Shown here in pieces: positions 6,001 to 9,000 of a stretch of 64,000 bases of DNA. Each line of letters begins with the position of its first letter. The first letter of the stretch is position 1. Position numbers: made by a program. This DNA comes from Escherichia coli (GTDB taxonomy: Bacteria > Pseudomonadota > Gammaproteobacteria > Enterobacterales > Enterobacteriaceae). The stretch lies in the NCBI RefSeq assembly GCF_041886205.1, contig NZ_CP169029.1; one strand, given 5' to 3'.

Positions 6001-9000
6001 GGATTAGTGTGATCCGGTTCAGCGAAATCAACAGGATAACGGTATGTCATTCAGCCATTCTTCCCTCTCCGCACAAGTGAAATCATATCTGACGTTTCTT
6101 CCTGAAGAAATTCGCCAGAAAATCCTTGAACATCTCCACTGTGTTATTCATTACGAGCCCGTGATTGGCATTATGGGTAAATCCGGTACAGGCAAAAGCA
6201 GTCTGTGTAATGCCATTTTTCAGTCCCGTATCTGCGCCACACATCCTCTGAACGGCTGCACCCGCCAGGCTCATCGTCTTACCCTGCAGCTCGGTGAACG
6301 CAGAATGACGCTGGTCGATCTGCCCGGCATTGGTGAAACACCGCAGCATGATCAGGAATACCGGACACTTTATCGTCAGCTGCTACCGGAACTGGATCTG
6401 ATTATCTGGATCCTGCGGGCTGATGAACGTGCGTATGCTGCCGATATTGCCATGCATCAGTTTTTACTGAATGAAGGTGCAGATCCCTCGCGTTTTCTGT
6501 TTGTTCTCAGCCATGCCGATCGCGTGTTTCCTGCCGGCGAGTGGAACGACACAGAAAAATGCCCGTCCCGTCAGCAGGCGCTCTCGCTGGCGACGGTGAC
6601 AGCCCGGGTAGCAACCCTGTTCCCTTCATCATTTCCGGTACTCTCCGTTGCCGCGCCTGTCGGCTGGAATATTCCGGCACTGGTGTCACTGATGATCCAC
6701 GCACTGCCACCACAGGCAACCAGCGCGGTTTATTCACATATCCGGGAGGAAAACCGCTCTGAACAGGCCCGGAAACACGCACAACAGACTTTTGGTGACG
6801 CCATCGGGAAAAGCTTTGACGCTGCCGTTGCCAGGTTCAGCTTTCCAACCCGGATGTTACAGCTTCTGCGCAAAATCCGGGACCGCATTATCCACCTGCT
6901 GGTCACACTGTGGGATCACCTGTTCTGAGCGCCCCGGAGTCCCCCGTGGCAACCGTATACCTTTACACGACAACGGATTACGGCAGCCACTGCCGTATGC
7001 CGTCTGTCATTATCAATAACGCACTCTTTAATTTCAGAGGTCAGTCATGAATACCAGAATTCTTTTTCCCCTGCTGTTCACTGTGGCATCCTTCTCCGCC
7101 TCCGCCGGTAACTGGGCTGTCAAAAACGGCTGGTGTCAGACCATGACGGAAGATGGTCAGGTGCTGGTAATGCTGAAAAATGGCACGATCAGTATCACCG
7201 ACCTGATGCAGGGGTGCCCAAATGGCGTACAGACGCTCCTGGTACTCATCGGCATTAACGGCAACCTGATCCCCACATCACAAATGTGTAATCAGTAGAC
7301 AGGATTCAGGGCTGTTGAGGTGGAAGCCGGACAGGCGCCGGAAATGGTCAAAAAAGCCGTTCACTCCATAGCAGAGCGTGATGTGTCCGTTTTACAGGCA
7401 TTTGGTGTACGAATGGAATTCACCCGCGGTGATATGCTGAAGGTCTGTCCGAAATTTGTCACATCACTTGCCGGTTTTTCCCCGAAACAGACGACTACTA
7501 TTAATAAAGATTCCGTCCTGCAGGCTGCCCGGCAGGCATACGCCCGGGAATATGACGAGGAAACAACAGAAACCGCTGATTTTGGCTCTTACGAAGTAAA
7601 AGGCAATAAGGTTGAGTTTGAAGTGTTCAATCCTGAAGACCGTGCGTACGACAAAGTGACCGTCACGGTTGGTGCTGACGGTAATGCCACCGGCGCCAGC
7701 GTTGAATTTATCGGAAAATAGCCGGTATGTCGGACTGTCACCCTGTTTTATTGCCCGAAGGCCCTTTCTCACGCGAACAGGCGATGGCTGTCACAACAGC
7801 TTACCGCAATGTGCTTATTGAAGATGACCAGGGAACGCATTTCCGGCTGGTTATCCGCAATGCTGAAGGGCAGCTACGCTGGCGGTGCTGGAATTTTGAA
7901 CCTGATGCCGGAAAACAACTTAATGCGTGGCTCGCCAGTGAGGGAATTCTCAGGCAATAAACGTCATTCATTTCACCCATCAGGCCGCGTCTTCTCCGGG
8001 AGACGCGGCTTTTTCATTTATACCGCCAACTCATTCATAAGGAGCAAATCATGCGATTAGCCAGTCGTTTTGGTCATGTAAACCAGATACGTCGTGACCG
8101 TCCGCTGACACATGAAGAACTGATGCACCATGTGCCGGGGATTTTCGGGGAAGAGAAACACACGTCCCGAAGCCAGAACTATACGTACATCCCCACCATC
8201 ACCGTACTGGAAAGCCTGCAGCGGGAAGGCTTCCAGCCCTTCTTTGCCTGCCAGACCCGTGTGCGCGACCCGGGCCGCCGGGGATACACAAAACACATGC
8301 TGCGTCTGCGGCGGGCCGGAGAGATAAACGGAGAACATGTCCCTGAAATTATTCTGCTCAACTCTCATGACGGTACCTCCAGCTACCAGATGCTGCCGGG
8401 TTACTTCAGGTTCGTCTGCCAGAACGGATGCGTCTGTGGTCAGTCTCTGGGGGAAGTACGTGTTCCGCACCGGGGAAATGTGGTGGACAGAGTCATTGAA
8501 GGGGCTTACGAGGTGGTGGGGGTTTTTGACCGGATTGAGGAAAAGCGTGATGCCATGCAGTCGCTGATTCTGCCGCCACCGGCACGCCAGGCGCTGGCAC
8601 AGGCGGCACTGACTTACCGTTATGGTGACGAACATCAGCCCGTCACCACCGCCGACATTCTGACGCCACGACGCCGGGAGGATTACGGTAAGGACCTGTG
8701 GAGTGCTTATCAGACCATTCAGGAGAATATGCTGAAAGGCGGAATTTCAGGTCGCAGCGCTAAAGGAAAACGTATCCATACCCGTGCCATTCACAGCATT
8801 GACACTGACATTAAGCTCAACCGCGCATTGTGGGTGATGGCGGAAACCCTGCTGGAGAGCCTGCGCTGATTCAGCCATTACCCTGAAAACCACGCATTTA
8901 TTTGTCCTTTAAGGAGTCATTTCATGAAAACCATTTCACATAATTCCACCACATCTTCTGTTTCCGTAACCGCTGCATCAGGGAATGACCAGCCTCAGCT

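Follow-up and report, generated by a model that had tools for sequence, protein, structure and literature searches.

A nonsense mutation splits one exported-protein gene into two annotated reading frames in a CP4-like island of Escherichia coli

Within the 64,000-nucleotide stretch of Escherichia coli DNA analyzed here (hereafter, the window), two consecutive open reading frames (ORFs) spanning positions 7047–7721 are very probably the two parts of a single gene that was inactivated by a nonsense mutation and is now inherited as a pseudogene in a decaying CP4-like island. This assignment rests on direct observations: the mutation itself, orthologues in which the gene is fused, an intact gene that evolves under purifying selection, an allele that is inherited, and a second reading frame that lacks a dedicated ribosome-binding site (RBS). 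The pseudogene is the product of an ordinary inherited nonsense mutation.

The first reading frame begins at ATG 7047 and, according to the sequence and the six-frame ORF list, continues for 83 sense codons to a TAG at 7296–7298 (+ strand). Seven sense codons (7299–7319; ACA GGA TTC AGG GCT GTT GAG) separate this stop from GTG 7320, which opens an ORF of 133 codons in the same frame as ATG 7047 that remains open until the TAG at 7719–7721. A frame scan around the first TAG counted 88 open codons upstream and 140 downstream. An earlier note on this DNA had described the two ORFs as sharing one frame and being split by a single TAG, which the sequence, ORF list, and frame scan bear out; its proposal that they constitute one gene with a nonsense mutation, not two genes, is upheld by alignment. 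The whole 675-bp stretch (7047–7721, + strand) derives from a 678-bp (225-codon) exported-protein gene and aligns end to end with the single coding sequences (CDSs) of WP_001097370.1, WP_032165979.1, and WP_001097301.1. Because of this homology to single 678-bp CDSs, we regard it as one interrupted gene and not as a chance juxtaposition. A tblastn comparison of the strain A12 protein with the window gene covered residues 1–225 at 98% identity. The remainder of the gene (7299–7721, + strand), predicted to be untranslated, consists of 140 codons plus the original TAG stop; gene callers restart it at GTG 7320 (133 amino acids) or ATG 7344 (125 amino acids), and the choice varies among annotations of the downstream ORF.

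Comparison with the closest intact allele, that of strain A12, pinpoints the lesions. The window and strain A12 are almost identical from about 5200 to 7900, and inside the gene they differ at three places only: 7220, 7243–7248, and 7296. The premature amber TAG (7296–7298, + strand) differs from the sense codon of its relatives by a single substitution, C-to-T at 7296, which changes Gln codon 85 from CAG to TAG. Strains A12, 21AR0303, and UTI89 and CP059922 have CAG at this site, as does every intact E. coli allele aligned, and Gln is nearly invariant at this position in a 21-sequence family alignment spanning Escherichia, Klebsiella, Citrobacter, Enterobacter, and Lelliottia. The second lesion is a private in-frame deletion-insertion (delins) at 7243–7248 (+ strand), in which GTACTC (Val-Leu) stands in place of the ancestral GGCAGCCGT (Gly-Ser-Arg), shortening the gene by one codon; the Gly and Ser that it removed are at least 90% conserved across the family alignment. 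For this reason the window reads 224 codon positions (83 + 1 + 7 + 133) instead of 225, such that the length of about 224 amino acids given in the earlier note is accurate for the window copy but not for the intact gene. The third change relative to strain A12 is a private synonymous substitution, CCG to CCA, at 7220 (+ strand). All three of these changes lie in a 77-bp interval of the gene, but with three events this clustering does not clearly exceed the background level of divergence from strain A12. A Dcm hotspot (CCWGG) was rejected as the cause of the C-to-T change at 7296, as the ancestral context, GCAGA, contains no Dcm site.

The comparison with orthologues that the earlier note had called for points to a fused gene. 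By megablast, the locus (7000–7760) is present in 1,841 of 5,426 complete E. coli genomes, 1,832 of which carry it at full length. We sampled 39 annotated rows across the ranking of full-length matches, and all 39 show one "hypothetical protein" followed by a "DUF905 family protein." A single 678-bp CDS is annotated in strains A12, 21AR0303, UTI89, MIN9, and TUM1880, and one uninterrupted ORF also occurs in Klebsiella. In those five strains, the CDS is flanked on one side by the DUF905 gene and on the other by either a GTPase-family gene or, next after the GTPase, a helix-turn-helix regulator. Protein searches with the read-through product retrieved proteins of 225–229 amino acids with 55–95% identity in Escherichia, Klebsiella, Citrobacter, Enterobacter, and Lelliottia, and 225 residues is the prevailing length in the family. 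Four cysteines are invariant across the 21-sequence alignment, as is the mature N-terminus (AGNW.V.NGWCQT). Relatives thus encode a fused 225-residue protein with CAG (Gln) at the site of the TAG.

Substitution patterns show that the intact gene is under purifying selection and that both of its halves are clearly constrained as parts of a single coding sequence. The Nei-Gojobori dN/dS ratio for E. coli versus Klebsiella is 0.11–0.13, an approximate value given that intergeneric dS is near saturation. By part, the same comparison gives 0.08 for codons 1–84 and 0.17 from codon 85 onward. Within E. coli, dN/dS is about 0.2.

The surroundings of the pseudogene are those of a CP4-like module. Immediately upstream lies a YfjP-type GTPase gene (MMR_HSR1; 6044–6928, + strand), identified by Pfam match and present at all related loci, and downstream lies a DUF905 gene (7727–7960, + strand; Pfam DUF905, E = 6e-31) that starts 6 nt past the original stop of the pseudogene. 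Pfam matches and tblastn against annotated relatives identify a module that resembles K-12 CP4-57 and is ordered as follows: YfjP-type GTPase, 225-amino-acid-family gene, DUF905, DUF932, antirestriction, RadC/JAB, DUF987, YeeU/CbtA, DUF5983, DUF957, and DUF4942. The gene order therefore matches the module running from the YfjP-GTPase to the CbtA/YeeU antitoxin, in agreement with the CP4-like label that the island had been given, and the island is classed as a cryptic one of the CP4-57/CP4-6/CP4-44 type. In Klebsiella, the order is GTPase, 225-amino-acid-family gene, DUF932, antirestriction, RadC, DUF987, CbeA/CbtA, DUF5983, and DUF4942, and the locus of a distant 336-amino-acid homologue reads GTPase, WYL regulator, homologue, DUF932. 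A separate observation in the window is a 1-bp insertion in fiu.

Two further genes of the island are interrupted by nonsense codons. An ankyrin-repeat gene carries an amber TAG at 293..291 (- strand), where strain TUM1880 has CAG; this is the second amber in the same island that the earlier note had reported. Dcm methylation sites are a classic hotspot for amber mutations, and the ankyrin-repeat amber lies at such a site, its context having changed from CCAGG in TUM1880 to CTAGG in the window. A UCP030791-family gene carries an ochre TAA at 725..723 (- strand); the corresponding codon is CAA in MIN9, and Gln occupies this position in the TUM1880 protein. The gene under study has also been inactivated independently in other strains. 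In CP059922.1, the 225-amino-acid-family gene is broken by a 2-bp deletion. In CP080260.1 and UARY01000011.1, it is interrupted near gene nucleotide 290 by an insertion of ~1.26 kb that contains rve-family transposase genes and is accompanied by a 3-bp duplication; transposase genes also occupy this breakpoint in AP026454.1. Together with the delins at 7243–7248, the ankyrin amber, and the UCP030791 ochre, these independent inactivations support the suggestion that decay is ongoing. The occurrence of the 125-amino-acid C-terminal product on 569 contigs was considered as a sign of very frequent disruption, but this reading is overstated since half of the sampled cases are contig ends falling inside the gene.

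The same nonsense codons bear on possible read-through of the TAG, whether by an amber-suppressor tRNA encoded elsewhere in the genome or by natural near-cognate decoding, with the result that some full-length protein would be made. We consider this very improbable. Amber accounts for two of the island's three nonsense codons, both ambers derive from CAG such that Gln insertion would restore the wild type, and the base following the stop at 7296–7298 is A, all of which would suit read-through. However, CAG-to-TAG is among the commonest single-step routes to a stop, the third island gene has a TAA that an amber suppressor would be unable to read, and the gene in question also bears the damaging delins. 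The presence of an ochre beside two ambers, in addition to the delins, makes general decay a better fit than an amber-suppressor background. Within the 64-kb window, the only tRNA call is Ser-GCT at 25864–25948, which falls within dinG and is probably spurious. Programmed recoding is also disfavored, as the TAG is private to one lineage and the in-frame stop is not conserved, with no exact match to a TAG probe among 1,834 records and CAG in the intact relatives that were compared. An inherited pseudogene thus accounts for the amber more readily than does a stop codon that is still decoded.

The ancestral product is predicted to be exported. The sequence at 7047–7106 (+ strand) reads as a Sec-type signal peptide (MNTRILFPLLFTVASFSASA, followed by GNW) with an A-S-A cleavage motif. 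A profile search retrieved remote homologues of 270–490 amino acids in which the N-terminal domain lies behind signal peptides or lipoboxes (LTGC), and export is thus a property of the family. Our assignment of the intact protein goes no further than an island-encoded protein exported to the envelope or periplasm. An AlphaFold2 model of the intact protein, built from a 29-sequence alignment, has a mean pLDDT of 84.7, with residues 1–15 below 50. The model depicts a disordered signal peptide, a beta-rich N-domain with one long helix (residues about 22–135), a low-confidence linker, and a C-terminal domain composed of a helix and four strands (155–224). In this model, the stop at residue 85 falls in the middle of the N-terminal domain and at no domain boundary, a position that speaks against the split being functional. 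The 83-amino-acid fragment retains three of the four conserved cysteines, and the fourth lies beyond the stop.

Searches for characterized relatives returned no family. The read-through protein and the family profile had no family match in Pfam, NCBIfam, or PDB sequences; the sole rows from these searches, YpdA (E = 0.026) and CFAP20 (E about 2), were dismissed as noise. A Foldseek search returned nothing significant. Cystatin-like, PepSY, and NTF2-like alpha+beta folds and IalB (PDB 3dtd) are tentative points of comparison, the PepSY/cystatin-like one being for the C-terminal domain. A profile search also produced a 7,945-amino-acid protein with 53 matched stretches to positions 146–205, which was rejected as a sign that the C-domain is a repeat module. 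This protein is a giant adhesin of identical tandem repeats, and its summed score is most likely an artefact of repeats or composition.

Translation signals distinguish the original start from the downstream candidates. The original gene has a Shine-Dalgarno (SD) sequence, AGAGG, at 7036–7040 (+ strand), 6 nt before ATG 7047, and its anti-SD duplex energy of -6.5 kcal/mol ranks in the top 3.5% of 1,929 ATG/GTG positions in the window. Corresponding values are -4.6 kcal/mol (13.5 percentile) at GTG 7320 and -4.1 kcal/mol (16.5 percentile) at ATG 7344, and by these duplex energies neither start has an SD that stands out from the window background. From the TAG to GTG 7320, the intervening 21 nt match the coding sequence of the intact strain A12 allele exactly, and the other alleles compared differ at one position. 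Unchanged coding sequence and a background-level SD indicate that no RBS has evolved for a second gene. Split orthologues with an independent RBS for the second ORF, which the earlier note had named as the finding that would speak against a single gene, are therefore not what is seen: relatives are fused and the SDs at both candidate starts are at background level.

These data also weigh on the idea that the locus now comprises two separate functional genes, one for a small secreted peptide and the other for a cytoplasmic protein of 125–133 amino acids. In its favor, gene callers annotate both ORFs in GenBank assemblies, and the lineage that retains the allele shows slight divergence in the flanks. 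Nevertheless, all orthologues are fused, the break lies inside a predicted domain and parts the cysteines 3 + 1, and the downstream product has no signal peptide. The second ORF also lacks a dedicated SD, and its 21 "intergenic" nucleotides are unchanged coding sequence. We rate this possibility as even more remote than read-through of the TAG and retain the interpretation of a single inactivated gene.

The TAG allele is passed on stably within a single E. coli lineage. An exact-sequence look-up located the 83-amino-acid ORF on 42 contigs, representing several GenBank accessions, and the 133-amino-acid ORF on 41. The complete 675-bp gene occurs with zero differences in GCA_032531385.1, GCA_002226215.1, GCA_022812545.1, and GCA_013900045.1 and in runs SRR31093902 and SRR18481734, such that at least six independent assemblies or sequencing runs carry the identical 675 bp. 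CP057953.1 (GCA_013900045.1) is 100% identical to window positions 5844–9221. The SRR18481734 contig differs from the window only left of about 5500, and the GCA_002226215.1 contig differs only right of about 8000. Since the same allele occurs with slightly different flanks, it has persisted long enough to sit in different island variants. A 57-nt probe centered on the TAG had 0 exact matches among 1,834 records, the best having one mismatch, and because a TAG on another allelic background would also score one mismatch, the probe alone is no proof of uniqueness. A sequencing or assembly error, for which one could cite the absence of this allele from the complete RefSeq E. coli genomes searched with the probe (1,834 records) and the 1-bp fiu insertion in the window, is excluded as an explanation, given that the identical 675 bp, TAG and delins included, recur in four assemblies and two runs, that the 83-amino-acid ORF is on 42 contigs, and that the change is a substitution and not a homopolymer indel. 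GenBank annotates the TAG allele as two hypothetical proteins with no pseudogene flag.

We propose the following course of inactivation. The ancestral gene encodes a precursor of 225 residues that begins with a Sec signal peptide; once exported, the mature protein has two predicted domains and four invariant cysteines. With Gln codon 85 (CAG) turned into TAG by the C-to-T change at 7296, ribosomes that initiate at ATG 7047 would release an 83-residue precursor, or about 63 residues after signal-peptide cleavage. This product would lack the rest of the N-domain, including the fourth conserved cysteine, and the entire C-domain. The ORF of 133 (or 125) codons would be an untranslated 3' remainder that is at most weakly re-initiated, and any re-initiated product, having no signal peptide, would be expected to remain cytoplasmic. 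The delins at 7243–7248 adds a second, in-frame lesion that takes out conserved residues. From the truncation, we infer that the fragments have lost function. Low-level natural read-through of the UAG, or re-initiation at GTG 7320 or ATG 7344, might still occur; a near-cognate tRNA-Gln at UAG would restore the wild-type residue.

Effects on the neighboring gene are also conceivable. Translation of the window copy would end 423 nt short of the natural stop, and the DUF905 gene, whose start lies just 6 nt beyond that stop and whose own SD is weak (-3.5 kcal/mol), may lose translational coupling. Rho-dependent polarity on this putatively coupled gene is possible.

The closest precedents for the allele are nonsense pseudogenes of E. 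coli prophages and islands, such as the annotated yfjV and ypjI of K-12 CP4-57, which are likewise dispensable accessory genes in a decaying integrative element. The mechanism is the same, whereas the window allele is confined to one lineage and is annotated as two hypothetical proteins. Among proteins, the counterpart is the 225-amino-acid CP4-island family (WP_001097301.1, WP_001097302.1, and WP_001097370.1), with the window gene being 95% identical to the E. coli cluster representative. Both occupy the same place between the GTPase and DUF905/DUF932 and have the signal peptide and all four cysteines in common; the window copy differs by the TAG at codon 85 and the GSR-to-VL delins. The YfjS/YafY lipoproteins and YfjT/YkfB of K-12 CP4-57/CP4-6 are positional analogues, small exported proteins of the same kind of island that sit downstream of GTPase, DUF932, and regulator genes. 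No homology to YfjS or YfjT was detected by hhalign, with probabilities of 0.5% and 4%, and signal peptides alone align.

For annotation, this lineage's 83- and 125/133-amino-acid "hypothetical proteins" should be combined into a single entry marked as a pseudogene. The locus also provides an example of CP4-like island decay, in which Gln codons have mutated to stops three times within 13 kb, once at a Dcm site. Of wider interest is the intact gene, which represents an uncharacterized, well-conserved exported family that travels with the YfjP-GTPase/DUF932 module across Enterobacteriaceae. A more speculative reading, which we consider unlikely, is that the intact 225-amino-acid protein is a conserved exported core component of the CP4-like module, with a two-domain fold that has no close solved relative, and that its repeated inactivation in E. 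coli (by nonsense mutation, by 2-bp frameshift, and by transposase-gene insertions in at least three other records) might stem from selection that disfavors an envelope protein because it is exposed or costly, instead of from neutral decay.

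Two glutamine codons on the minus strand of the CP4-like island have become stop codons. The first, an in-frame amber TAG at 291-293 (minus), lies in an ankyrin-repeat gene that extends past the left end of the window, at a position where the related island of E. coli TUM1880 carries CAG. It is the first of the in-frame ambers of the island, that of the exported-protein pseudogene being the second. Comparison with TUM1880 places the codon within an ancestral CCAGG, a Dcm site, that reads CTAGG in the window; the change fits an origin by deamination of 5-methylcytosine. An in-frame ochre TAA at 723-725 (minus), the third Gln-to-stop mutation in the island, interrupts a UCP030791-family gene (about 585-1118). 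The corresponding codon is CAA in MIN9, another strain with a related island, and the TUM1880 protein has Gln at this position.

Elsewhere, the orthologue of the pseudogene is disrupted by other means. In CP080260.1 and UARY01000011.1, a ~1.26-kb insertion with rve-family transposase genes splits the gene, and 3 bp are duplicated near nucleotide 290 of the gene. Transposase genes are found at this breakpoint in AP026454.1 too. In all three records it lies upstream of the 125-aa ORF by ~20 bp; in the window, that ORF is part of the gene remainder downstream of the TAG. This transposase-associated knockout is either recurrent or inherited, and it is distinct from the lesion in the window. Upstream of the pseudogene, the intergenic region that follows the YfjP-type GTPase gene contains a divergent 16-nt patch (6938-6953) with nine differences from A12 and 21AR0303, two strains in which the pseudogene's orthologue is intact (window GAGTCCCCCGTGGCAACC, these strains GTTTTTGCCCTGAGGAAAC); the sequence on either side of the patch is almost the same as in both. 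Sequence comparison ruled out a simple inversion as the source of the patch.

Between an inovirus Gp2-family gene and a gene for a 376-aa hypothetical protein, ~1.3 kb (3400-4700) holds no ORF longer than 59 aa. Within this stretch, 3422-3664 is the remnant of a small hypothetical gene whose counterpart is MIN9 WP_001696539.1, now with three in-frame stops. The right edge of the island, where island-like similarity gives way to similarity to the backbone of strain PT62, maps to 13338-13544. Similarity to the related islands ends at ~13300, PT62 similarity begins at 13545 in the glnH-glnP intergenic region, and ~200 bp at the edge match neither. Integrase and ParDE genes are present on the right side of the MIN9 and TUM1880 islands, whereas the right side of the window's island has none.

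In the backbone, a 1-base insertion at 21381 (AATCGC to AATCCGC relative to PT62) shifts the frame of fiu, encoding a catecholate siderophore receptor, ~45 codons before the gene end, with loss of the C-terminal strands of the barrel; fiu is either a true pseudogene or affected by a sequencing error. The tRNA-Ser(GCT) called by ARAGORN at 25864-25948 (minus) lies entirely within the dinG CDS (25543-27693, bounds from the PT62 comparison) and is most likely a false positive.
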